DNA from: Acidimicrobiales bacterium
GTDB lineage: Bacteria > Actinomycetota > Acidimicrobiia > Acidimicrobiales > SZUA-35
Direction: 5' to 3'
NCBI GenBank assembly: GCA_028285495.1
Contig: JANQPB010000026.1
Coordinates: forward strand, 1 to 64,000
DNA length: 64,000 nucleotides
Numbering within the stretch: the first letter of the stretch is position 1; each line of letters begins with the position of its first letter. The position numbers were made by a program, and so were the translations under genes. Positions 48,383 through 62,860 of the stretch are shown piece by piece. The notes beneath the pieces are model-generated. The model ran no database searches and was not told the DNA's origin. It saw nothing but the letters and a program-made list of their open reading frames with translations.

Positions 48383-50566
48383 TCAGAAGAGCCCCGCGTC
48401 GCGACAGACCTGGACCGCCTCGGACCGGGAGCTGACGCCGAGCTTCCGGTAGGCCGACCGTGCGTAGGTCTTCACGGTGTTGAACGACAGGAACAGCTCG
48501 CGGCCGATCTCGCGCTGGGTGAGGTTGGAGCTGAAGGCCCGGAGCACCTGGATCTCGCGGGCGGTCAGCGCCGCGGTTCCGGCCGGTCGGCGGTCGTCCG
48601 GTGTCGGGGCGGTCGACGGGAGTCGGCCGGCGATCAGATCGACGTAGCGCTCGATGAGCGGTGACGGTTGCTCGATCTCCTCGATGAGATCGCGGGCGGC
48701 CACGATCACCCGCTCTGCGTCGTCGATCGAACCGGTCTCGATCCAGTGGTTGGCCTCGGCCAGGTGGAAGAGCGCGACGGCGTACGGGCTGTAGATCGTC
48801 TCGCCGATGGTGCGGAGGGGCTCGACCGCCCGTCCGGCCTGGTCGGCGTCTCCGGTGAGCAACCGACCGACGTGGGCGAGGCTCATGTGGATGGCCGTCG
48901 ATGGCAGCCCGACCTCCTCGGCCATCCGCATCGCCTGGTCGGTGAGCGAGCGGGACGTCGCCGGGTCCTGGCGCTGGAAGGCCAGGAGTCCCTGGAGCGA
49001 GCGGGCGGCGATCGTGGGGATGCGGTCGGTCGCACCGGACGTCACCTCGATGCACTGCTCGAGGCGGGCCTCGGCCGGCCCCGTCCGGCCGTCGAGGGTG
49101 AGCGCCATCGCCGACACCAGCAGGCACTCGGCGACGTCGCCCGGTGGTCCGTCGAACGATCCGTTGCGCCCGTCGAACAGCTCGAAGACCCGATCGGCCT
49201 CGGCCGCCGCATCGGCGATCCGGCCGTCGGCGTGGAGCAGGCTCACCCGGGTGGCGAGGGCCATCAGGCGGTTGGTCGGCTGGTCGTCGGTGTGCTCGTC
49301 CGCCCGGCCGGCCCAGGTCTTGGCCTGATCGACCCGACCGCCGTAGAGGGTGGCCCTAGCGGCCAGGAGGAACATCCCGGCATCGGCCTCGGGCGTCTCG
49401 GCCAGTGCGCCGATCCAGCGGGCGACCGTCGCATAGCGGCCTCGGAGGGTGTAGTCCGATGCGTGCTTCGCCACCAGGGCGATGGCCCGCCCGTTGTCGC
49501 CGGCTTCGATCAACTGCTCGATGGCCGGCCGAGGTTGGTGGTCGGCGAGGTACCAGTCCGCAGCGAGCCGATGCCCGACCCGCCTCGCGTCCGCGTCCAG
49601 CCGGTGCTTGAGCACGTCTCGGAGCAGATCGTGGTAGCGGTACCAGATGCGACCGGACTCGTGGCGGCGGCGGGCCAGACCGCGGCGTTCGAGGTCCTCG
49701 GCGATCGCCCCAGCCGACGCCGGGTCGGTGAGCGCGGCCGCCAGCTCGACCACGAACCGATCGACGACCGACGTGTGGTGGAGGAACGTCCGGTGGTCCG
49801 GTGGAAGCGTGTCGAGCAGCTCCTCGGCCAGGTAGTCGACGATGAGCCGGTCGCTGCTGACGAACCGGGACAGGAACTCGTCCCGATCGTCGACCGTCCG
49901 GAGGGACTGGGCGGCCAGGCTGATGGCGGCCGGCCACCCCTCGGTCGACTCGACGAGGAGCTCGACCTGCTGCGGCGACAAGTCGAGCGAGAAGGCCTGG
50001 CGGAGCAGCTGGTCGGCCTCGTCCGTGGTGAAGCCGAGATCGTCGGAACGGAGCTCGCTCACCCACCTCGCAGCCCGCAGGCGGGCCAGGCGGAGCGGCG
50101 GGTCGACCCTGGTCGACAGCACGAGCAGCGACCGTGGCCCGACCTGCTCGATCATGGCCTGCACGATGCGGTGGCTCTCGGGGTTGTCGATGACGTGGTA
50201 GTCGTCGAGCACGATGGCGGCCGGACCGTCGGCCTGGACCGCGTCCAGGAGCACGGGCAGGCCCTCCTCCACCCACGCGGCCGGCGTCGACGAGCCGGGA
50301 CCGGGAAGGGAACGACCCACGTCCGGGATCAGGGCCTCCGAGGACTCGAGGACGCCGGCGATCAGCCGCATCGGATCGTTGTCGGCCGGGGTCAGCGAGC
50401 TCCAGCAGCACCGGATCGCCGGCACCCCGCCTGCCCAGCTCCGCAGCAACGTCGTCTTGCCCCACCCACCGGGGGCCGAGATCACCAGCAGTCGTTCGTC
50501 GTCCTCCGGCCGTGGGAGACGGTCGAGGAGCCCTCGACGGACCACGTCATCGGACCTCACCTCCAC
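48383..50566 (-). CDS. LuxR-family transcriptional regulator with N-terminal AAA/NB-ARC ATPase and TPR-like middle region (LAL/MalT-type)
   Basis: Walker A ISAPGGWGKTTLL, Walker B VLDDYHVI, C-terminal LuxR HTH (LTAREIQVLRAF..EIGRELFLSFNTVKTYARSAYRKLGV); GTG start ~50566 after GGGGGAG. Confidence 0.85.
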   Translation of the reverse strand: MEVRSDDVVRRGLLDRLPRPEDDERLLVISAPGGWGKTTLLRSWAGGVPAIRCCWSSLTPADNDPMRLIAGVLESSEALIPDVGRSLPGPGSSTPAAWVEEGLPVLLDAVQADGPAAIVLDDYHVIDNPESHRIVQAMIEQVGPRSLLVLSTRVDPPLRLARLRAARWVSELRSDDLGFTTDEADQLLRQAFSLDLSPQQVELLVESTEGWPAAISLAAQSLRTVDDRDEFLSRFVSSDRLIVDYLAEELLDTLPPDHRTFLHHTSVVDRFVVELAAALTDPASAGAIAEDLERRGLARRRHESGRIWYRYHDLLRDVLKHRLDADARRVGHRLAADWYLADHQPRPAIEQLIEAGDNGRAIALVAKHASDYTLRGRYATVARWIGALAETPEADAGMFLLAARATLYGGRVDQAKTWAGRADEHTDDQPTNRLMALATRVSLLHADGRIADAAAEADRVFELFDGRNGSFDGPPGDVAECLLVSAMALTLDGRTGPAEARLEQCIEVTSGATDRIPTIAARSLQGLLAFQRQDPATSRSLTDQAMRMAEEVGLPSTAIHMSLAHVGRLLTGDADQAGRAVEPLRTIGETIYSPYAVALFHLAEANHWIETGSIDDAERVIVAARDLIEEIEQPSPLIERYVDLIAGRLPSTAPTPDDRRPAGTAALTAREIQVLRAFSSNLTQREIGRELFLSFNTVKTYARSAYRKLGVSSRSEAVQVCRDAGLF

Positions 50567-50778
50567 CACGACTCCCCCCTGTCCAGTCCCCGGACCGGAC
50601 GGTCGCCGGTCGTCAGGCCTCGACCTCGAACCTAGCCCGACGGTAGGGCCGCAGCGGACCGCAGCGGCGTTGCCTGGCGATCGATTCACCCAGGGTGAGG
50701 ACTCGACCCGTCACCCACCTCCGTCGTTGGATGACCGCAGCCGCAACCGGCGGCATGGCCGACAGGAGGATCGATCCC

Positions 50779-51426
50779 ATGTTGAGCAACGGCGGGGCCG
50801 CCGACCGGTCCGCCCCGGTGACGGCGACGGGCGGCCGCCTCCGGCTCGTCCTCGTGTCCGCCGCGGTCGGGGCCACCGTCCTGGCGGCCAGCTGCGGAGG
50901 TGGCTCGTCCGCCGCCCAGCCCGACGACACGATCCCCGGTTCGCCACCGGACCACGTCCCGAGCGAGTCGACCGCCTCGACCACGACATCGCCGGCAGCA
51001 CCGCCGACCGAGAGCACCGCCGGCACGTCGGCGACCACCACCCCGTCGACCGGCACGGCGACCGACGAGGACGAGGGCCAGGACACCCCGACCATCATCG
51101 ACTGGACCATCGACGTCGACGCCGCCGAGTGCCGGGTCAGCGACCTGCCCGGCTCGCCGGGGGGCGAGGCCGTCGTCCCGGCCAGCTGGGCCGCCGGCAA
51201 CGCCGAGTACGTCGACTTCATCGTCGATGGCGACCTCCGCCCGGCCAACACGGTCCGCGACGTGCGGGGGACGGGCAACATCCAGGTTCCCTGCGACCCC
51301 GAGCTCAACGACGGCCACGAGGTGATCATCGTCGCCTACGCCGGGCCGCCGGCCGACCCCGGCATCCCCGTCGAGGGCTCGCGGCTGATCGTCACGACCA
51401 CCGCCACCGTCGACAACGGCGGCTGA
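50779..51426 (+). CDS. lipoprotein of unknown function
   Basis: AGGAGGA SD, signal peptide with lipobox LAASC, Thr/Ser/Pro linker then compact C-terminal domain. Confidence 0.6.
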   Translation: MLSNGGAADRSAPVTATGGRLRLVLVSAAVGATVLAASCGGGSSAAQPDDTIPGSPPDHVPSESTASTTTSPAAPPTESTAGTSATTTPSTGTATDEDEGQDTPTIIDWTIDVDAAECRVSDLPGSPGGEAVVPASWAAGNAEYVDFIVDGDLRPANTVRDVRGTGNIQVPCDPELNDGHEVIIVAYAGPPADPGIPVEGSRLIVTTTATVDNGG

Positions 51427-51812
51427 CACCACCGTCCCCGGACCGTCGCCGGGGCGAATCAACCGGCCGGTTCGAGCCGGCCGACCCCGAGGGAAGCACA
51501 CCCCATGACCGCCCCGGCATCGACCGCCACATCGCCACACCAACCGACGTTCCGGTCCTCGGGCGACCCCACCGAGACCGAGCACGATCTCGCCGCCCGG
51601 CGGCACCCGGCACCAGCGCCGGCCATCCCCTCGCGACACCGGGACGCAGGCCGACCCGCCTCCCGTCGCCCGACACCCCGCCGCCGCGCCGGTCCCCTCG
51701 GTGCATCCACCGCATCGAGGGGACCATGGCGAGCGGCGGCGCCGTCCACCCCCGTCGGGACAGGCGGACGGACGACCGACGCACAGACCCGCACACGGAG
51801 AGTTGGAGACAC

Positions 51813-52595
51813 GTGACCCTCGTCAAGCTCGACCCCGATCCCGACCACCTGTTCCACGCCGCGTCGCACATCCTCGGCGCCATCGTGCGACCCGACGTCC
51901 CCCTTCGGATTCGACACAGCCGAGTCCTCGCCTCCCGGGGCGACCTCACCTACCACCACGAGTCGCACGAGCTCGACGCCAGCCTCCGCGACACGGTCGA
52001 ACGATCGGGCTGGCGGGCGGCGGTGGGCGACGAGTCCTTCACCGCCACCGCCAGGAGCCGCATCGAGATGGACGTGGCCGGCGACCTCGCGCTCACCGGC
52101 AACCTCAAGATGCACCGGGCCAGCGGCGGCGGACAGATCTGGCTCGGCCACGAGGGAGGTGACGTCTCCGTGTTCCACCTCGCGGACGACGAGCTGATCG
52201 TGCTGGCACAGGGCGAGGTGCTGGCTCACGACGACGCGCTCGACGTGGCGCTCGAGCGGCGGGTGCCCCGGGAGATGGCCATCGTCCGGGACACGACCTA
52301 CGCCTGGGTCATGCGGGGCACCGGCCACGTCGCCACCGCGACCCCGGGCGAGACCGTCGTCCTCGACGTCACCGAGGACGACCCCGTCCTGGTCGAGGGC
52401 GACGCCCTGCTCGCCTACACGAGCGGCATCGAGCTCACCCCACCAGACGACTACGAGCGCCGCGCCGCCATGCGAGGCGTCAAGTGGCTCCTGAAGAACA
52501 TCCCCCAGATCAACCTGTCGACGGGGAGGGAGCGGATCTGGATGGTGGCCAACGGCCGCGGCTCGGTCGTGATCCGGTCCGGCGACCAGTCGTGA
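51813..52595 (+). CDS. hypothetical protein, possibly AIM24 (DUF124/TIGR00266) family
   Basis: GTG at 51813 preceded by GGAGAGTTGGAGA; beta-rich Gly/Asp/Val pattern (MRGTGHVATATPGETVVLDV..DDPVLVEGDALLAYTSGIEL); ~260 aa; upstream 530 codons of track ORF are antisense text. Confidence 0.5.
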   Translation: MTLVKLDPDPDHLFHAASHILGAIVRPDVPLRIRHSRVLASRGDLTYHHESHELDASLRDTVERSGWRAAVGDESFTATARSRIEMDVAGDLALTGNLKMHRASGGGQIWLGHEGGDVSVFHLADDELIVLAQGEVLAHDDALDVALERRVPREMAIVRDTTYAWVMRGTGHVATATPGETVVLDVTEDDPVLVEGDALLAYTSGIELTPPDDYERRAAMRGVKWLLKNIPQINLSTGRERIWMVANGRGSVVIRSGDQS

Positions 52596-54095: not shown

Positions 54096-54869
54096 CTACG
54101 GTCGTCGCTCGTCCAACCAGGTGAAGAAGGCGGCGAAGCGGGCTTGCTGACGTCCGTAGGTCACGATCGTGCCGTCGATACCGACGTCGCTCAGGGAGAC
54201 ACCGGTGTCGACGACGTCACGGCCGTTCGCGGCACACGTGTCTCGCTGCTCGTCGGTCAGCGGCTCATCGATGACCGCGAAGTCGGATCCCGGCGGTGTG
54301 CCTCCCTGCGGTCGACAGAGCACCTCGACCGGCGGGCCGTTGTAGAGGGTCCTCGCATCGAAGCTCGGGACGTCGTCGTCGAACGCCTCGATCAGCGCTC
54401 GAACGTCGTCCTGCAGCGCCGGTGACGCGGCGAAGAAGATGTTCTGCGGCGAGGCCGTGGTCGCCGTCGTGCTGGTCTCGGTCGTCGTGCCACTGGTGTC
54501 GGTCGACGTCGTGTCGGTGTCGACGGTCGTCGCCGTCGTGCTGGACTGGGTCGTCGTCCCCGTCGTGGCCGTCCCCGTCGTGGCGGTCGCCGTCGTCGCC
54601 GCGTCGGCGGTGGTCCTGCTCGTTTCGGTCGACGTCGTCGCGGTGTCGGCCGTGCTCCCGGACGTCCCCCCGGGCGTCTGGGCGCTGCTGGTTGCGCTCG
54701 CGGGTGATCCCGAGGCCGAAACGCCGTCGTCTTGACCACTCCGAAGAGCGCTGAGCGCCACGAGCGCAGCGGGTATGGCGAGCGCCGCTGCGATGATCAC
54801 CTGCCATCGGTGCAGGTAGGGACTCGTGGGCGACCCCTCCGTGCGTGATCCACCGGACTGTGGGTCCAT
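54096..54869 (-). CDS. membrane-anchored protein with Thr/Ser-rich linker and small C-terminal domain
   Basis: N-terminal TM anchor WQVIIAAALAIPAALVALSAL, ~90 aa T/S/A-rich low-complexity stalk, C-terminal globular segment. Confidence 0.5.
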   Translation of the reverse strand: MDPQSGGSRTEGSPTSPYLHRWQVIIAAALAIPAALVALSALRSGQDDGVSASGSPASATSSAQTPGGTSGSTADTATTSTETSRTTADAATTATATTGTATTGTTTQSSTTATTVDTDTTSTDTSGTTTETSTTATTASPQNIFFAASPALQDDVRALIEAFDDDVPSFDARTLYNGPPVEVLCRPQGGTPPGSDFAVIDEPLTDEQRDTCAANGRDVVDTGVSLSDVGIDGTIVTYGRQQARFAAFFTWLDERRP

Positions 54870-55321
54870 GAGTGCCCCCAGGAAATCGATCTATGGAGAT
54901 TCTGACATCCCGGTAACGGTCGATGCCCGGAATTGACTCCAATGTGAGCAAGAGCACCGACAGGACATGCAACAATCAAGTTGTGATCGACCTGTCGACG
55001 CTCGGCGTCGTGGCCGCCGTCACGTCATCTGGATTCGGGCAGTCATGCGGGCTCGGGCGCATCGAGGCGACCACGAGACGAGGCGTGACGGACCGACGTC
55101 GTGCTCGCCATTCGGCCCCGCTGCGGCCGGGCCCCCGGGCCTGACCGCGGGCCCGGCCGAGTTGCCGCCGAGCCCCGTCTGCCCCGGTCGAGGCCTCGGT
55201 CGCACCACGCGGCGGGCAGGATCGGCCGAACGCCCGGGATCGGTGTCCGTCGGTCAGAACCGGCGCAGGTCGGGCATCGACGCGCGACACTGAGGGCGGC
55301 AACGTCGAAAGGTGACGAGCG

Positions 55322-56908
55322 ATGCCGGTGAAGTACGTCAAGCTGCAGAAGCACGGCAGGAAGGGCCGGAAGCGCAGGATCTTCCTGCTCGACGGCCCTC
55401 GGGACAACGCAGACAAGTTTCGCCAGGTGCTGTGGGGCGACCATCTGACGATTCTGCGCGAGGCGAACGCCGACTACTACGAGGTGGAATGGGCGCCATT
55501 GTCCGACGATCCACAGACCAAATACATCCGAAAGACCCACACCACCGACGACCGCCCGTTGGAGATCATCTTCGTCGACGTCGGCCAAGGAGACGGAGCG
55601 GTCCTCATCACACCGGAAGCCGGCACGACCGAGCGTGTGCTCGTCATCGACGCAGGCAAGGACGACCACATGGCTCGCTTCCTGCGGGAGCGGTTCGGTA
55701 GTTACGGCAACGGCTACGACTTCAGCGGTGCGCTCATCACCCACACCGACTCCGACCACTACCTCGGCTTCAAGCCGGTCTTCGACGCCAGGAGGCTCAG
55801 CGACACCGGCGCAGACGCCGGGCCGTTGTTCAGGTTCGGAACCGTCTTCCACCCGGGATTGCTCGAGGGGCCGGGTGGACCGAACGTGACGAGCTGGGAC
55901 CGTCTCGGGGGGCGGGTCGAGATCGACGGTCGGAACTACCTGACCGACCTGCTCAACTCGAACGTCGACGTGAGACGCCGGTTCACCGACAACCCCGACG
56001 AGGACTACGACTTCGCCAGCGTCGTCGCCTCGATCTTCAGGAACAGGGGCAACCAGTCGTTCAAGATGTTGTCGAACCGGCACGGGTCCACCTCCGGCGT
56101 TGCCGGCGACACCCGCCGGTTCGTGCCGGGGCTCGCGCCGAGCGACACCGGTGGCGGCTACTCGGTGCAGATCCTCGCCCCGTTCGTCGAGCAGGCGAAC
56201 GGGGCCAACGCGCTGAGAACGCTCAGCAGCTACGGAGAGACGAAGAACGGCCACTCCGTGATCCTCAAGCTCGAGATCGGTGGTTTCCGGGTGCTCTTCG
56301 GCGGCGACCTCAACGACAAGGCCGAGAAGTTCATGCTCAAGGAGCTCGCCGGGTTGTCCCGCTGGCCCAGGCGGGCGTCCGCGGACCATGCGAGGATGAT
56401 CGAGGCGGGCAGGGCCCTGTTCGGGGCCGACGTGTTGAAGGTGTGTCACCACGGATCGGAGAAGGTCACCGACGAGTTCCTGCAGGCCGCCGACGCCGCG
56501 GTCTTCGTCGTGTCCTCCGGGGAAACGGGGGGCCACGTGCACCCGCGCCCGGAGCTGCTCGGGCGGCTCGGGAAGGCCGGGCGCACCGACCAGCCGGTGA
56601 TCCTCTCGACCGAGCTGCAACGCTCGACCAAGCCAGACGACGACCCGAGCGCCGTGCAGGACGCCGTCGACGCCGTCGACACGCTCGCCAGCCGCTCGAC
56701 CGAGGCCCGGATCCGGGATCTGAAGGAGCGGATCGAGAGGTTGGGCCGAACGAACGTCGGCGTGTACGGGTCGATCTATGTCAAGACCGACGGAACCGAC
56801 CTCATCGCCGCGTTCAAGAAGGAGACGGGTTCGCACACCGACAAGTGGTTCTATTTCCACTACACGATCAACGACGACGGCAGCCTGAAGCTGTCGGACA
56901 CCGTCTGA
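55322..56908 (+). CDS. MBL-fold metallo-hydrolase (ComEC/Rec2 C-terminal-like nuclease domain) with basic N-terminal extension
   Basis: IIFVDVGQGDGAVLI..VLVIDAG and ITHTDSDHYLG (HxHxDH variant) motifs; lower local GC with AGA/AGG/GGT/AAA codons unusual for this genome. Confidence 0.8.
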   Translation: MPVKYVKLQKHGRKGRKRRIFLLDGPRDNADKFRQVLWGDHLTILREANADYYEVEWAPLSDDPQTKYIRKTHTTDDRPLEIIFVDVGQGDGAVLITPEAGTTERVLVIDAGKDDHMARFLRERFGSYGNGYDFSGALITHTDSDHYLGFKPVFDARRLSDTGADAGPLFRFGTVFHPGLLEGPGGPNVTSWDRLGGRVEIDGRNYLTDLLNSNVDVRRRFTDNPDEDYDFASVVASIFRNRGNQSFKMLSNRHGSTSGVAGDTRRFVPGLAPSDTGGGYSVQILAPFVEQANGANALRTLSSYGETKNGHSVILKLEIGGFRVLFGGDLNDKAEKFMLKELAGLSRWPRRASADHARMIEAGRALFGADVLKVCHHGSEKVTDEFLQAADAAVFVVSSGETGGHVHPRPELLGRLGKAGRTDQPVILSTELQRSTKPDDDPSAVQDAVDAVDTLASRSTEARIRDLKERIERLGRTNVGVYGSIYVKTDGTDLIAAFKKETGSHTDKWFYFHYTINDDGSLKLSDTV

Positions 56909-57053
56909 ACGGGGCACGAGGTCCGGGGGTCGACCGCGTCCGGTCGGGCGGCAGGCCTCGGGCTGCGACCGGGCTCGTGTCGATGCCGAGCCGTCGGAGA
57001 CCGCCGACGCGGCGCGAGGCCGGCAGGCCGACCCGACGGCGATGACCGGGCCG

Positions 57054-57587
57054 TCAGCGAGCCGTCCGGGTACGAGCCGTGGCCAGCGCGTCGGCGATGT
57101 CGTCCAGGGACTTCCCGGCTAATCCACCGCCGGTGAAGGCCTCGTCGTCGGAGACCTCCGAGCCAGCCCACGACGGGGGGACGAACTCGTCGAGAAGCGA
57201 CGGGTCGCCGAGGTCGACCTCCATCAGGACGAGCCCGGCCAGCGATTCCTCGAAGACGTTGACCGCGCACGGGCGGCCATCGACCTCGATGGCCCAGCGA
57301 GTCTTGACGAGCCTTTTCGCCGGCAGCGCCCCGAGGACGCGGAACTCGTCCTCGTCGAGATAGAGGCTCGTGTGCATGATCGCCCGGGGATCTGAGGTGT
57401 TGAGGCGGCGCTTGTGACCGAGCTTCCGGTCGGGCTCGGCCCCAGGTCGGTCAACCCTTCGGAGGCGGAGGCGGGTGCCGTCGACGTAGAGGTCGACGAT
57501 TCGGCGGGGGTCGGTCGCCCCCGCTGGGATCTCGTCGAGCAGGAACCGGCGCTCGTACTCGCCGACGGCGTACTTCTCGTTGACCAT
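57054..57587 (-). CDS. CYTH (triphosphate tunnel metalloenzyme / class IV adenylate cyclase-like) domain protein
   Basis: N-terminal EYERRFLL (ExExK-like) motif and beta-rich alternating charged pattern of CYTH tunnels; 177 aa. Confidence 0.65.
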   Translation of the reverse strand: MVNEKYAVGEYERRFLLDEIPAGATDPRRIVDLYVDGTRLRLRRVDRPGAEPDRKLGHKRRLNTSDPRAIMHTSLYLDEDEFRVLGALPAKRLVKTRWAIEVDGRPCAVNVFEESLAGLVLMEVDLGDPSLLDEFVPPSWAGSEVSDDEAFTGGGLAGKSLDDIADALATARTRTAR

Positions 57588-57886
57588 CCGTCCAGGATGT
57601 CAGGTCGACGCCGACGAACCGCCAGCTCCGCTCGACGCACGCCTCCGGGGCGCCAGTGCAGCGCTTGCGAGCACCGGTGGCCCGGCCCGGATCGCCACCG
57701 ACGGTGGCCCCAGCGGCGGGCCGCGACCGGGTCAGCCCGGTCTTGAACACCACCGCAACGAGCTGGACCCGGTCGCGGCGTGCGGCCTCGTCATCGCCCG
57801 ACTCACGCGGGTCTCGGCCGGGGGCATCACGTTCGGCGCAGAACGTCGCGGCAGGCGAGGCACCCGGGGCCGGCAGACCGGTCGTG

Positions 57887-58117
57887 TCACCCGGCGAAGG
57901 TGGAGCCTGCGGGATCCGGTTGGCCCCGATCCTTGGGGATGAGGATCCACAACAGCACGTAGACGAGCTCGCCGGCGCCGACGAGCCCGAACAACAGGAA
58001 GGCCAACCGGACCAGCGTCCGGCTGAGGCCGAAGCGCGAGGCCAGCGCCGCGCAGACGCCGGCGAGCACCCGACCATCGCCCCGGGCCGGTCGAGTCAGC
58101 TGAGATCGTGCTGCCAC
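57887..58117 (-). CDS. PspC-domain membrane protein
   Basis: RVLAGVCAALASRFGLSRTLVRLAFLLFGLVGAGELVYVLLWILIP matches PspC domain; GTG start with GGAGGA SD. Confidence 0.6.
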   Translation of the reverse strand: MAARSQLTRPARGDGRVLAGVCAALASRFGLSRTLVRLAFLLFGLVGAGELVYVLLWILIPKDRGQPDPAGSTFAG

Positions 58118-58462
58118 GTGGTGGTCCTCCCAACGGGATGCTCGTCGAGCTCCCCTCGCCGAATCCTACCGAACCAGGATCCGATGCCGGACAGCGGCGC
58201 AGCGGCGTCGGTCCCGCGGCGAGGATCGGCTCGTGTCGTGCTCGCGGGCGTGAGGTGGGCGGTGGTGCGCCAGGACACGCATGACACAAGGTTCGACGTC
58301 GGGTATTCGCGACCCGAGCTGAGGCGGACGCCATGGTCAAACGCTTCGAGCGGGGCGACCCGCCTCACCAGACCCACTCCATCGAGGAACGCCCTGCGGA
58401 TCGTCGAAGGGCCGCCGCGAGCTCGCGGCTGTCACCGATCCTGGCGATCGGGTGGTGGTCGT

Positions 58463-59500
58463 CTACCCGGTCGAACGGAGACCGGCTGGCCGGTCTCCGT
58501 TCGGCTGGGGAGCATGGGTAGGTGCGGTCGGTGGGGCTGCGAGCGAGCCTCCCTGGTCGGGCAGCGCCTGGACGGTGCGGCGCCAGGTACCGGGCGGGGC
58601 TCCGTAGTGTCTCTTGAAGACGGACCCGAATGCGGCTTCCGATTGGTAGCCGAGGCTGCGAGCGACCTTTCCAACGCTGTCGTCGGACTGGACCAGGCGT
58701 TGGGCGGCGAGCCTCATGCGCCAGCCGGCCAGGTAGCGAAGGGGCGGTTCGCCGACGAGGTTCGAGAAGCGGGCGGCGAGCCCGGAGCGGGACATGCCGA
58801 CCTCGCGTGCGAGGTCGCCGACAGACCAGTGGCGCCCTGGTTCTTGATGGAGACGCCGGAGCGCCTGCCCGACGTGGGGATCAGCGAGGGCTCCGAGCCA
58901 GCCGGTGCCGACAGCGGGCTCGGTCCGAATCCAGGCGCGAACGGTCTGGACGAGCAACAGATCGAGGAGCCGATCGAGGGCGAGTTGCGAGCCCGGTTCG
59001 GAGCTCTTGGCCTCGCGGGCGATGAAGCGCAGCGAGTCCTCGAGCCAACCGGCGTCGACCATGTCCTCGCTGCGCAGGAGAACGAGGGGCGGGAGGATCG
59101 CCCGGAGCGGGTGACTCCCGCCCGAGGCGAAGTAGAAGTTGGCGCAGATGATGGTGGTGCGTCGACCGTCGCCGCCGCCTTCGATCTGTCGGCAACCCGT
59201 CAGCTCGGCGTCTGCATCGTCGGGAGCCTCGGACAGCAGCGCCGACGAGTCTGCGGCGTCCTCGGTTGGATGATCCGACAGTACGTGCGCCGTCCCGTGG
59301 GCCAAGAAGACGAGATCTCCCGGACCGAGGTGCGTGGTCTCACCGTCGAGCCGGAGGAAACAGGAGCCTCGGGACACGATGTGGACGGTGGCGTGGTCCT
59401 TGTCGGGAAAGAAGGTGGACCACGGGGCCCCGAGCTCGATCTCGCCCGCCACCCTGCCGGTGACCTGGAGATGTCGTAGTACGTCGGTCAACACGTCCAT
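58463..59500 (-). CDS. AraC family transcriptional regulator (cupin-type sensor + HTH_18)
   Basis: N-terminal cupin-like region; C-terminal dual HTH (SVGDLAREVGMSRSGLAARF.. and GKVARSLGYQSEAAFGSVFKRHYG). Confidence 0.85.
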   Translation of the reverse strand: MDVLTDVLRHLQVTGRVAGEIELGAPWSTFFPDKDHATVHIVSRGSCFLRLDGETTHLGPGDLVFLAHGTAHVLSDHPTEDAADSSALLSEAPDDADAELTGCRQIEGGGDGRRTTIICANFYFASGGSHPLRAILPPLVLLRSEDMVDAGWLEDSLRFIAREAKSSEPGSQLALDRLLDLLLVQTVRAWIRTEPAVGTGWLGALADPHVGQALRRLHQEPGRHWSVGDLAREVGMSRSGLAARFSNLVGEPPLRYLAGWRMRLAAQRLVQSDDSVGKVARSLGYQSEAAFGSVFKRHYGAPPGTWRRTVQALPDQGGSLAAPPTAPTHAPQPNGDRPAGLRSTG

Positions 59501-59645
59501 CGTGAGAACTCTCCTCGACGCTGATCTACCGAAAATCCGGTCGACCTGGACGATTGCGATAGAAGTCTGGAGTTCTCAGGCTACCGAATCCAGGATCAGG
59601 TGCGTACGCTCGATCTTGACCTAGTGGGCAGCGAGGAGTGCGACG

Positions 59646-60395
59646 ATGAGGTTGGCGAACAAGGTGGCGGTCATCACCGGCGGCGGCAGCGGGATCGGGC
59701 TGGCCGTCGCCCAGGCCTTCGTTGGCGAGGGCGCCCAGGTGGCCATCTCCGGCCGCAGCGCCGACACCCTGGCCGCAGCGCGAGACCGCCTGGGAGGCTC
59801 TGCCATCGCCGTTCCGGGCGATGTCACCAACCACCGTGACCTCGAGCGGCTGTTCAACAGCACCGCAGAGCAGCTCGGCAAGATCGACGTTCTCGTCGCC
59901 AACGCCGGTGCCATCAACTTCACCCTGCTCGGACACACCACCGAGGCCGATTTCGACACCGCCAGCGATCTCAACTTCAAGGCCGTGTTCTTCACCGTCC
60001 AAGCCGCCCTCTCGCTCCTCAACGACGGCGCCTCCGTGATCATCACCGGCAACGCGCTGGCCTCGAACCCGGTGGTCGGACCGTCCGTCGCCATCGCCGC
60101 CAAGGCCGCCGTCAGGTCGCTGGCCCGCACGTTCGCCGTCGAGCTCGCACCGCGAGGAATCAGGGTCAACGTCTTGAGCCCGGGTCCGACCGCCACCGGC
60201 GCCCCCGCTCCAAGCGACGAGGTCGATGAGATCTCCGCTCAGATCACGAAGCAGATCCCCCTCGGCCGCTGGGGCGCTCCCGAGGACGCCGCCAGTGCCG
60301 CCCTGTTCCTGGCCACGGACGAATCGTCCTACATCACCGGAGCCGACCTCCCAGTTGGAGGCGGAATCGGCATGGGCTGGGTCCCGCAAGCCTGA
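59646..60395 (+). CDS. SDR family oxidoreductase
   Basis: VAVITGGGSGIG, NAG, catalytic S..Y/K region; divergent from AraC regulator. Confidence 0.9.
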   Translation: MRLANKVAVITGGGSGIGLAVAQAFVGEGAQVAISGRSADTLAAARDRLGGSAIAVPGDVTNHRDLERLFNSTAEQLGKIDVLVANAGAINFTLLGHTTEADFDTASDLNFKAVFFTVQAALSLLNDGASVIITGNALASNPVVGPSVAIAAKAAVRSLARTFAVELAPRGIRVNVLSPGPTATGAPAPSDEVDEISAQITKQIPLGRWGAPEDAASAALFLATDESSYITGADLPVGGGIGMGWVPQA

Positions 60396-60532
60396 GACGG
60401 CGACACGCAAGCGATCCGCAGCGGGCGCGGGATCACCAGGAACGGCGGGGATGCGCTCACCGGCCGTGAAGGCCGACGAGGCGGCACCGTCTCGGTCTCA
60501 GGTGGGAGCGGGCTTCGGCCGAGAGACCTGTC

Positions 60533-61116
60533 ATGCCTCGACGTCATCGCCGGCTCGGGCTGCTGGTGCTGTCGTTGTTGATCGCCGGCTGTGCCTCGAC
60601 CGACCCAGGAGCGACACCTCCGGCTGCCGTCGATGCGACCTCGACCGCCTCGACCAGAGCCCCTCGACCGTCGATCAGCGGTGTCGAGACCGGCTCGCCT
60701 GGACCAGCACGAGCCAGCGACCCGGACACTGCCGACCACGCATCGGCCGACCGAGAGGAAGCACTCAGCCTCCTCGCCGCCGACATCGAAGCCGATCCCG
60801 GCTGCGTCCGCGATCGATTCACCGGCGGACGGTGTCGCTCTGCAGCGGCTTCTTCGAGGAACTCGTCGACGAAGACGTCGCAGACCAACTCCCGCAGGAC
60901 GAGCTCGACTGCATCGTCCGTCTCAGCCGCGACGACCCGGAGATCGTGGCGCTTCACCTGGCCGGGACGCGCAACGGCGCCACCGTCGAGGACGTCTACC
61001 CCGAAGCCATGGTGGCGAAGCTCCAGCGAGGTCAGACAGCCCGCTCCGAGATCCTCACGAGGATGCGAGCGCTCGGAGCGTGCCCGACCGGCCCGAGCGC
61101 CCGGATCGATCCGTGA
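60533..61116 (+). pseudogene. lipoprotein gene with apparent frameshift (~60835-60850)
   Basis: Frame 2: lipoprotein signal MPRRHRRLGLLVLSLLIAGCAST.. protein-like to ..DPGCVRDRFTGG; frame 1 continues protein-like ..CSGFFEELVDEDVADQLPQDELDCIVRLSRDDPEIVALHLAGTRNG.. to stop at 61116; the remainder of each frame is Arg/Ser junk. Confidence 0.35.
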
Positions 61117-61326
61117 GCGCCGCCACCCGTGCTTCGCCGGTCAGGTCGCTCCGGAGTCCGCGTCCAGCTTCAACGCAAGGAGGGCCAGGCCGATCGCCAG
61201 AGCAACCCGCGTGCCCGGGGGTCGCCGTTGGCCCCGTCCCCACCCCACCGACGGTCATGGCCAGGCCAGCGTCGAATCTGGCGTGCGGACGGTCGCCCTT
61301 CCAGGCTCGCTGTCATCGAGTAGGGC

Positions 61327-62604
61327 TCAGCCCCTGGGGTCGGTGACCTGCCCGGCGAACAGTACGGCGCCGGTGTCAACGTGGCGGACGAGATAGAGGA
61401 ACGGCCGGTCGGCTGCCACCAACAACTCCGGCTCGGGCGGGCCAGAGGTTGCGAACCCGAGGCCCGTCGCGGCTGCCGCTTCCGTGCCGATCTCGTCGAC
61501 GGCGATGTCCGCCCCGTGCACCGCACCGTCGAGGAACACGCCGGGGCCGATGCCGGGGAAGGCACCCGGAGCGATCCCGCGTTCGGTCAACCAGCCCAGG
61601 AAGTCGATCGCCGTCGTGGTCTCCCACTCGGGCATGCGCAGCTCGTATGGGCCTGTCGTGAACACACCGTCGATCTCAGCCAAGAAGTCGGACGACAACC
61701 GGGAACGGACGTCATCGAAGCGACCCTCGTCAGGCACGATGATCAACATCGCATAGTCGTCACCCAGGTACGGGACCTCGGCCCCGACGAACCCGTCACC
61801 AACCCCCCGGGGGCCGGGCTGCTCGAGATCGACCAGGTACGTCATCTCGACGGTGGTCCCGTCGAGCCGAGTGAAGGGACCTTCGATGGTTCCGTACTTG
61901 CCGAAGATCGTGCGCCACTGGGCCTTGAAGTAGACGGTGTCGGTCAACACCAACACGGTGCTGCCGTCGATGAAGCCAGCCGGGAGCAGCTCAGGGATCA
62001 GGTCGTTGGTCTGCTCCGACACCCACGAGTTGATCCGCTCGCGAGAGCCTTCGGGATCGCTGACGTCAATCGTCTCGACGTCGGCTCCGTGGTGGCTGGC
62101 CATCAGGTCGACCCAATCTTGATCGGGGGCGGCCGTCGTCGAGGGCCACAGCCGGTCCGAGACGGTGACGATCGGCGTCGCCGTCTCGTCGATGGCGACG
62201 GCGGTGCCGTTCGAGGCCGCAAGTTGGGCATCAAGAGCGTTCCAGGCATCGTGGGCGGCCATGCCAACCGGTAGGGCGAGCGCTTCATCGATGGCCGCTG
62301 CCGTCGCATCGTCAGCCGCACCGCGGGCCATCAACAGCGCGTGGCCGATACTGAGCGGGCTGAACACCAGGTTCTCGCCGACCGGCTGGGTACGCATCAG
62401 ATCGAGACCGCCGTCGGTGAACCCGGAGACCAGATCATCGATCGGCGCATCGGCCACAGGCAGGGCTCGCTCGACACCGGACGAGGGCTCGACCACCCCA
62501 CCGGCCGAACCGGAGCTGTCGCCGCCGCACGCCGCTGCGACGAGAAGCGCAGCGACGACAGCCAGCATGCCGAGACGAGGGTGGACGAAGGCGATCCGTG
62601 TCAT
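61327..62604 (-). CDS. serpin (serine protease inhibitor) family lipoprotein
   Basis: Serpin C-terminal signature ..FVADRPFLYLVRHVDTGAVLFAGQVTDP, reactive-centre hinge IGTEAAAATG; N-terminal lipobox LVAAAC; ATG at 62604. Confidence 0.85.
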   Translation of the reverse strand: MTRIAFVHPRLGMLAVVAALLVAAACGGDSSGSAGGVVEPSSGVERALPVADAPIDDLVSGFTDGGLDLMRTQPVGENLVFSPLSIGHALLMARGAADDATAAAIDEALALPVGMAAHDAWNALDAQLAASNGTAVAIDETATPIVTVSDRLWPSTTAAPDQDWVDLMASHHGADVETIDVSDPEGSRERINSWVSEQTNDLIPELLPAGFIDGSTVLVLTDTVYFKAQWRTIFGKYGTIEGPFTRLDGTTVEMTYLVDLEQPGPRGVGDGFVGAEVPYLGDDYAMLIIVPDEGRFDDVRSRLSSDFLAEIDGVFTTGPYELRMPEWETTTAIDFLGWLTERGIAPGAFPGIGPGVFLDGAVHGADIAVDEIGTEAAAATGLGFATSGPPEPELLVAADRPFLYLVRHVDTGAVLFAGQVTDPRG

Positions 62605-62860
62605 GGTCGGTAGGACGCCAGGGCGGGGCCGCTGGTTCCCCGACGTCCCCGCCAGCCGGTCGGCGACGGGCACGACCCGACCCGCCCGGGTACGGCGCCA
62701 GAGCGCTCGGGTCGCACCAACGCCAACGTTCGGCGTCATGGGGCGGGCCGACGTCGAACCGGCCAGGTCCGAAGGCGACGGCACCCAGCGGCTGCCGAGA
62801 CCACACGCTCGGAGTCTCGGGTTGCCACAGTCGGTGATCAGCGGGCCGGTCGTCGACCGT

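Follow-up and report, generated by a model that had tools for sequence, protein, structure and literature searches.

On contig JANQPB010000026.1 of an Acidimicrobiales bacterium (positions 1 to 64,000 of the forward strand; this whole 64-kb stretch is referred to here as the window), the region 54870-57600 is poor in guanine plus cytosine (GC) and contains a gene for a 528-aa protein with a metallo-β-lactamase (MBL) fold that converges on a gene for a 177-aa CYTH-domain protein. The locus raises the question of whether these features mark imported DNA, as proposed in an earlier note that read them as a horizontally acquired low-GC island with the two genes as joint defence or competence-like cargo, or whether each has an ordinary explanation. 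The results presented here favour the latter. The 528-aa protein is probably a stand-alone cytoplasmic phosphodiesterase, which joins a bacterial SH3-like (SH3b) domain to a ComEC-clade MBL domain; it is encoded by a chromosomal accessory gene and lies beside an unrelated NeuTTM-like CYTH protein.

The MBL gene occupies positions 55322..56908 of the forward strand, as defined by its open reading frame (ORF), its homologues, a family alignment and an AlphaFold model. The ATG at 55322 is backed by the family alignment, and a GAAAGG sequence lies 10-15 nt upstream of it. Residues 1-75 (55322..55546, forward strand) form the SH3-like β-barrel, which contains the Lys/Arg-rich stretch that had already been noticed at the N-terminus (KHGRKGRKRR) as a loop at residues 10-19, while the MBL catalytic domain comprises residues ~79-500 (55556..56821, forward strand). 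In an alignment of 25 homologues (A1; mean column identity of 58%), the motifs DVGQGDGAVLI (residues 86-96) and ITHTDSDH (residues 139-146), from which a ComEC-type fold had first been proposed, fall on invariant columns. The invariant set consists of D86 (in DVGQGDG), H141-x-D143-x-D145-H146, N309-G-H311-S, G328-D329, C375-H376-H377-G378 and H407-P-R-P.

The AlphaFold model reached a predicted local distance difference test score (pLDDT) of 81.4 and a predicted template modelling score (pTM) of 0.84. Its closest structural matches were ComEC (9ic4) and Pce, together with the endolysin 4krt for the SH3b domain. Fold and five metal-binding motifs place the protein in the MBL superfamily (PF00753), and the H-x-D-x-D-H motif 2, the DVGQG motif 1, the HHGS motif 5 and the structural neighbours place it in the ComEC/Pce structural clade; it is a ComEC/Pce-clade MBL fold with complete catalytic motifs. 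Compared with ComEC, it has extra residues between motifs 2 and 3 (~70), after motif 4 (~22) and in its C-terminal part (~80, including a helical hairpin), and the largest insertion (residues ~160-300) was predicted by AlphaFold to be ordered and not a disordered loop. No signal peptide or membrane segment was evident by eye, without a predictor. In profile searches, only a sub-threshold Lactamase_B match was obtained from Pfam, while NCBIfam gave sub-threshold matches to Avs1a, ComEC/Rec2 and the 6A-MBL enzyme, and PADLOC gave weak matches to LmuA (1.5e-13), Avs1a and RTasMBL (7e-8); the Avs1a match had an E-value of 1e-8 to 1e-9 in NCBIfam and PADLOC.

Because the full set of metal-binding motifs is present, including the H-x-D-x-D-H motif of the ComEC type, we infer that the protein is a metal-dependent phosphodiesterase. 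It would hold a binuclear centre of Mn2+ or Zn2+, and a metal-bridged hydroxide would attack the phosphodiester. The substrate would most likely be DNA, as it is for the corresponding domain of ComEC, which has the H-x-D-x-D-H motif too and works as both an endonuclease and a 5'-to-3' exonuclease, in dependence on Mn2+ (PMC12455585). Further, the best matches in NCBIfam and PADLOC, albeit sub-threshold, were to nuclease-type MBL proteins (Avs1a, ComEC and LmuA), which argues for DNA as the substrate. Recognition of the substrate or of a partner would fall to the SH3-like domain and to the insertions specific to the family. The fold, the motifs, the distribution, the composition and the lack of linkage to the CYTH gene are results of the analysis; metal dependence, DNA as the substrate and any physiological role are predictions.

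More distant relatives bear on the substrate as well. When 1.84 billion cluster representatives (50% identity clusters) were searched with a profile of the family, 302 clusters matched at E ≤1e-30 and 5346 at E ≤1e-10. Many of the matches listed cover the greater part of the profile and so have the SH3b plus MBL architecture. In two of them (P0241 and P0244) an N-terminal TM0106-type RecB-like nuclease/RNase_H_2 module is fused to SH3b plus MBL, and in a third (P0240, locus L091) a TM0106-like module with DUF2779 is fused to the C-terminus; the MBL motifs are intact in all three. Since nuclease modules are fused in both orientations, these proteins provide the best available argument for DNA as the substrate. 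A fourth fusion protein (P0314, L090:1110-3128) consists of a TIR domain, a hydrophobic segment, SH3b and an MBL domain without D86, H146, D329 and the HH pair. This suggests that the scaffold can also take a non-catalytic part in a protein of the immune type, in which the dead MBL domain may serve as a sensor. The fusions are located on short contigs, where P0314 adjoins a DUF433 gene and P0244 (L092) a MazE antitoxin gene.

With regard to base composition, the dip reported at 54870-55010 is real, with a GC content of 54.6% (51.2% for 54870-54990) vs. 71.4% for the whole window. This stretch is the AT-rich part of a 452-bp intergenic region flanked by the MBL gene and a divergent gene for a Thr-rich protein (54096-54869, reverse strand), and it presumably holds divergent promoters; a consensus sigma-70 scan of the intergenic region 5' of the MBL gene found zero sites. 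Two regions in the 64 kb are as GC-poor over 141 bp. The second one, 59455-59662, lies between a divergent AraC-type regulator gene (58463-59500, reverse strand) and an SDR gene (59646-60395, forward strand), a position in keeping with the view that divergent promoter regions are commonly AT-rich in this window. The whole of 54870-57600 has a GC content of 67.3%, which is among the lowest 0.3% of equal-sized windows, and the MBL gene itself, with 65.5%, is the minimum of all 1587-bp stretches.

Codon usage was compared with that of 25 window genes taken as reference, and synonymous usage was ranked by leave-one-out log-likelihood over 29 genes. The GC content at third codon positions (GC3) of the MBL gene was 0.907 (range of the reference genes, 0.82-0.97), its codon adaptation index (CAI) was 0.662 (0.54-0.84), and its synonymous log-likelihood ranked 16th of 29. 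The anomaly previously reported for AGA, AGG, AAA and GGT codons therefore held in part: AAA occurs once and GGT makes up 0.15 of the Gly codons, both of which are ordinary, whereas AGA plus AGG (AGR) account for 13 of the 44 Arg codons vs. 93 of 1067 elsewhere (Fisher p = 1e-4). AGR is the sole enriched set. An origin of AGG by Lys-to-Arg amelioration (AAG to AGG) was considered and is not supported, as homologues did not have significantly more Lys at the sites where Arg is coded by AGR (0.18 vs. 0.15; p = 0.16 and 0.34). The usage found by GC3, CAI and log-likelihood is hence typical, contrary to the island proposal, and since the earlier note had itself let its island stand or fall with non-uniform codon usage, this uniformity refutes it.

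The low values were those of the first and second codon positions (GC1 = 0.616, GC2 = 0.439). In line with this, Lys makes up 4.9% of the MBL protein vs. 1.2% in the window, a fourfold difference, with Phe, Tyr and Asn also increased and Ala and Pro decreased. When the protein was encoded with the window-average synonymous usage, a GC content of 66.5% was predicted, compared with the observed 65.5%, so that nearly all of the deficit is due to amino-acid composition. Family-wide, the GC content of the gene equals that of its flanks (mean difference of -0.002, standard deviation of 0.026, 80 relatives). The low GC content and the AT-rich stretch next to it are therefore those of a strongly conserved Lys/Asn/Phe/Tyr-rich protein beside an ordinary promoter region, and not those of a recent import. 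Because third codon positions match the host, the gene appears to have resided in this genome for a long time. The case is a caution for GC-based island calls, as a conserved protein can produce such a composition effect in a high-GC genome.

Features that usually accompany islands were likewise not found. The 64-kb window contains zero transfer RNA (tRNA) genes, no Rfam element was found, no direct or inverted repeat pair brackets the MBL gene (only short, low-identity chance pairs were present), and no recombinase occurs among the Pfam matches of the neighbouring genes. By codon usage, tRNA genes, repeats and recombinase, the locus does not qualify as a genomic island or an integrated mobile element.

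To place the MBL gene in a wider context, its relatives were collected and their loci compared. A search of 5.8 billion proteins yielded 915 matches, the best with 52% identity; the 120 matches listed were 500-534 aa in length and covered 92-100% of the query at 45-52% identity. Relatives were present in ~400 of 185,579 species (one genome per species), with carriers that include Acidimicrobiia, Flavobacteriaceae, Saprospiraceae, Rhizobiaceae, Sphingomonadales, Caulobacter and Burkholderiales. A neighbour-joining tree broadly followed phyla, although Acidimicrobiia were split over three or more positions and one sequence from Solirubrobacterales was nested in a Variovorax/Burkholderiaceae group, and it placed the window protein on a deep branch with a metagenome-assembled genome of Acidimicrobiales. 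One insertion is common to the window protein and its relatives P0001 and P0042. The protein and contig collections have no entry for the exact MBL protein of the window, and the contig index has none for protein P0002, although the CYTH protein next door is recorded (P0121, 100% identity).

An all-against-all clustering of 4729 ORFs from 81 MBL loci did not reveal a conserved partner gene; every neighbour cluster was confined to 12 or fewer of the 81 loci, and recurring clusters followed related lineages. Both flanks are syntenic within Rhizobium/Ciceribacter, Flagellimonas and Caulobacter, and mainly the upstream flank in Methyloversatilis, while no synteny of MBL loci was found between orders. 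The Acidimicrobiia loci present four different contexts, and the window is a fifth, which shares only generic SDR-type paralogues with them. Operon geometry was assessed in 44 loci, for which the ORF calls were crude and the gene ends approximate: a gap of 50 bp or more preceded the MBL gene in 41 of 43, and a convergent gene followed it in 29 of 44. The MBL gene is usually monocistronic, and that of the window would likewise be transcribed on its own. The 148 nearest neighbours spanned 184 Pfam families, the commonest (ABC transporter and histidine kinase) with 4 of 148 each. PADLOC gave only generic ATPase- and kinase-type matches for these 148 neighbours and no specific defence system, which goes against the suggestion of defence cargo, and properly called neighbourhoods contained cobalamin, sugar, amino-acid and DNA-repair genes without any pattern.

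The family was not found in IMG/VR viral contigs, phages gave one weak partial match (21% coverage), and plasmids gave two distant homologues with 26-31% identity; on these grounds, carriage by phages or plasmids was rejected. Given this near-absence from viruses, phages and plasmids, together with the distribution, the synteny within lineages and the lack of a partner, the MBL gene behaves like an accessory gene of the chromosome, transferred now and then and stable once acquired, and unlike defence-island or mobile cargo. A plasmid-borne relative (26% identity; L089, NZ_CP022566.1:103947-105416, Rhizobium leguminosarum plasmid pSK02) is located between DUF3616 and S1/P1 nuclease genes on the same strand, with two Ku genes a few kb away, and these surroundings may represent a DNA-catabolic or end-processing cluster. 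SOS regulation was rejected as well, since a LexA-box scan with Alpha-, Beta/Gamma-proteobacterial and actinobacterial patterns, covering the 250 bp in front of each of 80 family genes and the 450 bp in front of the MBL gene of the window, gave only three scattered hits of the wrong lineage.

The convergent gene (57054..57587, reverse strand) encodes a 177-aa protein that on its own did not match any entry of Pfam (even at E = 10), NCBIfam or PADLOC. A profile built from 31 homologues (A3) and compared with the PDB matched NeuTTM (2fbl/3typ) at E 3.8e-22 over nearly the whole length, which bears out the CYTH assignment of the earlier note; PF01928 is carried by two of the 31 family members, both distant ones. 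E9-x-E11-R12, R40, R42, K58, K94 and R96 are conserved in the family, with E9, E11, R40, R42, K94 and R96 invariant, and this motif together with the profile homology places the protein in the CYTH/TTM superfamily. It shares with NeuTTM (NE1496 of Nitrosomonas europaea) the E-x-E-[RK] motif and the Arg, Lys and Glu residues of the triphosphate tunnel. It differs in that most proteins of its family have Arg at position five of E-x-E-x-K, in ~25 extra C-terminal residues and in a sequence too diverged for detection by the Pfam CYTH model. NeuTTM is reported to be a specific inorganic triphosphatase (PMC3440374). The activity of the 177-aa protein would likely be tri- or polyphosphate hydrolysis rather than signalling.

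No link between the two genes was found. A CYTH relative was absent within 10 kb of the MBL relatives in all 81 loci (best tblastn E-value of 0.23), and the three closest CYTH relatives lie on contigs without a called MBL gene; as the genes never co-occur in the loci examined, they do not form a joint cargo. The 93 CYTH homologues form a graded series (100, 81, 80 and 73% identity, down to 29%), in contrast with the MBL protein and its best match of 52%, and those with a named source are mostly from Acidimicrobiia and other Actinomycetota. In three related Actinomycetota/Acidimicrobiia loci (L083, L084 and L085), ~83% nucleotide identity was detected over 57034-57604 only, that is, over the CYTH gene plus ~20 bp on each side, and the neighbourhoods are all different. 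Because homology ends ~20 bp outside the gene, the CYTH gene is conserved and its context is not. A 5.3-kb metagenome contig (L082), which ends inside the MBL gene, is identical to positions 56303-61627 of the window. With it, the genes called here for PspC, the AraC-type regulator and the SDR protein are confirmed. The CYTH gene is an independent neighbour without a functional link to the MBL gene. The two were not co-located in any of the other loci compared, and the CYTH gene is shared with related Acidimicrobiia.

Compared with known systems, the MBL protein differs from ComEC/Rec2 (Moorella glycerini, 9ic4), which has an OB fold and a transmembrane competence channel, in lacking both, in being soluble and stand-alone and in having an SH3b N-domain. 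Further, motif 3 is KNGHS in the MBL family vs. NNNS in 9ic4. Neither the Competence nor the DUF4131 Pfam domain was matched, and TIGR00361 gave 32.8 bits vs. a cut-off of 190, with the best stretch aligning residues 369-418 to profile positions 601-651. The protein is not a ComEC/Rec2, given that the channel domain is missing, and the proposal of competence-like cargo fails with it. Pce/CbpE (Streptococcus pneumoniae; 2bib, 1wra) is secreted and has choline-binding repeats, in contrast with the MBL protein, which has an SH3b domain and no evident signal peptide; no sequence-profile match of Pce/CbpE to the MBL family was obtained.

A third group of relatives consists of the ComEC-like MBL proteins of the Hachiman, AVAST, Lamassu, DRT and "canu" systems. 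These are pro-nucleases in which disordered insertions block the active site and are cleaved by an adjacent trypsin-like or caspase protease (PMC12799240; 10.1101/2025.09.03.673762). The MBL proteins of these systems (HamM, Avs1a, Lamassu, DRT and CanC) are likewise separate ComEC-like proteins with insertions, and the best matches in NCBIfam and PADLOC are to them. The SH3b domain of the MBL family is missing from these proteins, and the HamM, Avs1a and CanC modules include an adjacent protease and a sensor, in contrast with the MBL family, which has no conserved neighbour and whose housekeeping context and genus-level synteny also differ from those of protease-gated defence modules. In the window, no protease was found among the Pfam-annotated genes at 48.4-63.5 kb, nor were STAND NTPase, 6A-MBL partner or LmuB SMC genes seen. 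The scores were 37.7 bits vs. a cut-off of 420 for Avs1a (NF041809) and 18.1 vs. 220 for the 6A-MBL enzyme (NF058524), and the LmuA profile (PDLC03854; 48.6 bits) aligned best to residues 306-420 only, so that the protein belongs to none of these families. With no adjacent protease and scores far below the cut-offs, it is not a member of the protease-gated pro-nucleases.

Against this background, the acquisition of a low-GC island, in which an MBL nuclease and a nucleotide-acting CYTH protein would act jointly in a defence or competence-like module, is very improbable. It could appeal to the MBL gene being the lowest-GC stretch of the window, to the enriched AGR codons, to the patchy distribution of the gene and to the lack of synteny of both genes, but GC3 and synonymous codons are typical, and tRNA genes, an Rfam element and a bounding repeat pair were all not found. 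The CYTH gene is absent from the 81 MBL loci, as is an MBL gene call from the contigs of the CYTH relatives, and the two genes are convergent and not co-transcribed. In addition, the graded series of CYTH homologues is typical of vertical descent, and the ComEC channel domain is lacking. A different proposal retains the single enzyme and changes its substrate, with a Pce-like phosphodiesterase that would act on phosphocholine, a phospho-sugar or a lipid head-group ester while its SH3b domain binds a ligand, either a glycan or a peptide. Cell-wall ligands are typical of SH3b domains, as illustrated by the 4krt match, and phosphoesterase or HAD genes are found nearby in some loci (a HAD gene directly downstream in Rhizobium L008, Metallophos upstream in Flagellimonas L065 and Phosphodiest in L086). 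We nevertheless hold this proposal to be unlikely, as profiles match ComEC and defence nucleases and not Pce, the H-x-D-x-D-H motif agrees with ComEC and diverged relatives are fused to DNA nucleases. Moreover, an envelope substrate would need export, for which no N-terminal hydrophobic signal or membrane segment was seen by eye, and the carriers are mostly Gram-negative bacteria, without teichoic acid.

A further proposal is a role in immunity. By analogy with the gated pro-nucleases HamM, Avs1a and CanC, the gene could encode a single-gene effector of abortive infection, a DNase whose insertions or SH3 domain keep it inactive until it is triggered by infection, possibly through an unlinked host or phage protease. 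The closest hidden Markov model (HMM) matches are defence MBL proteins (LmuA, Avs1a and RTasMBL, at the E-values given above), but all these scores are far under the family cut-offs. Insertions relative to ComEC are present, as in the defence pro-nucleases with active-site-blocking insertions (PMC12799240; 10.1101/2025.09.03.673762), but the large one, at residues ~160-300, is predicted to be ordered. The low-confidence segment 401-480 is conserved. The TIR fusion in P0314, the antitoxin-type neighbours of P0314 and P0244 (DUF433 and MazE) and the patchy distribution are compatible with such an effector. This is set against published modules that always have an adjacent protease; none is conserved in the MBL loci, where the sole peptidase among the 25 commonest neighbour families is the metabolic Peptidase_M20 (3 of 148). 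Neighbourhoods are housekeeping or metabolic, without a defence-island signature, the position is stable and syntenic within genera, and the family is missing from IMG/VR viral contigs and nearly so from phages and plasmids. The probability of an infection-triggered effector is, in our judgement, small. A broader version, to which we assign a slim chance, is that SH3b plus ComEC-type MBL proteins are an unrecognised class of stand-alone immune or conflict DNases, in which SH3b and the insertions would act as sensor or gate and no adjacent protease would be involved. If this were true, the superfamily would reuse one scaffold both as an active nuclease that partners RecB-like nucleases and, catalytically dead, as the sensor of a TIR effector (P0314).

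Several observations weigh against the stand-alone chromosomal phosphodiesterase that we favour. Neither the MBL gene nor the CYTH gene is syntenic with relatives of this organism, the window sharing only generic SDR and AraC paralogues with the MBL family loci or the CYTH relatives; this part of the chromosome is therefore variable, though without island hallmarks. AGR codons are enriched, with no significant support for a Lys-to-Arg origin. Region 401-480 of the model has a pLDDT of only 45-63 despite its high conservation, and the second-best structural match, Pce, is a phosphorylcholine esterase and not a nuclease. Further, the fusion relatives are only ~30-35% identical to the window protein and lie outside the core family, which makes them leads and not proof. 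Taken with these points, the MBL gene is probably an ordinary accessory gene of a known enzyme kind, probably a DNase, in a poorly syntenic but ordinary chromosomal region. The observations of the earlier note are thereby partly confirmed, the GC dip, the gene, its motifs and both folds being real and the codon anomaly holding only for AGR. Its interpretation is partly supported, in that the fold calls were right and the MBL gene is a sporadic accessory gene, while its core, an island with a two-gene cargo, fails.

As found, the locus matters little, as it adds one more accessory hydrolase. The family has a modest value of its own, with a core of ~400 species and 45-50% identity across phyla, and its annotations are only generic or else wrong ("ComEC family competence protein"). 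Among free-standing proteins, it is the nearest kin both of the nuclease domain of ComEC and of the protease-gated defence pro-nucleases, and its characterisation could reveal how the nuclease acts in an ungated or differently gated version. Tractable carriers include Caulobacter, Variovorax and Rhizobium.

Between the AT-rich stretch and the MBL gene lies a non-coding leader (55011..55321, forward strand) with a GC content of 74.3%. A riboswitch or structured leader at 55000-55325 was rejected because Rfam gave no match, the RNA fold z-score was -0.14 vs. shuffles, with no unusual folding energy, and frame-specific GC3 periodicity, a sign of coding, was not found in 55011-55321. The leader is not kept in the closest MBL relative, whose upstream region is ~50 bp. 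On the other side, the MBL and CYTH genes are separated by a GC-rich convergent spacer of 145 bp (56909..57053), in which a scan detected no intrinsic-terminator-like site.

Among the other genes of the window, the divergent one at 54096-54869 (reverse strand) encodes a 257-aa protein with an N-terminal hydrophobic anchor, a Thr/Ser/Ala-rich low-complexity region and a C-terminal globular part. It contains degenerate repeats at 54459-54665 with spacings of 42, 27 and 15 nt, matches no family, and its codon usage is among the most atypical of the window (log-likelihood of -1.046). Further upstream, a gene at 48383-50689 (reverse strand) encodes a regulator of the LuxR family, 768 aa in length, that includes an AAA_16 ATPase region, and a long ORF at 50214-52595 (forward strand) has a C-terminus that matches AIM24; gene calls at 50.2-52.6 kb are ambiguous, with overlapping high-GC3 ORFs on both strands. 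Downstream, positions 61327-62784 (reverse strand) encode a bacterial serpin of 485 aa (Pfam Serpin, 9e-61), extended at its N-terminus by ~130 residues, whose synonymous codons are the second most atypical among the scored genes (GC3 of 0.825, CAI of 0.538).

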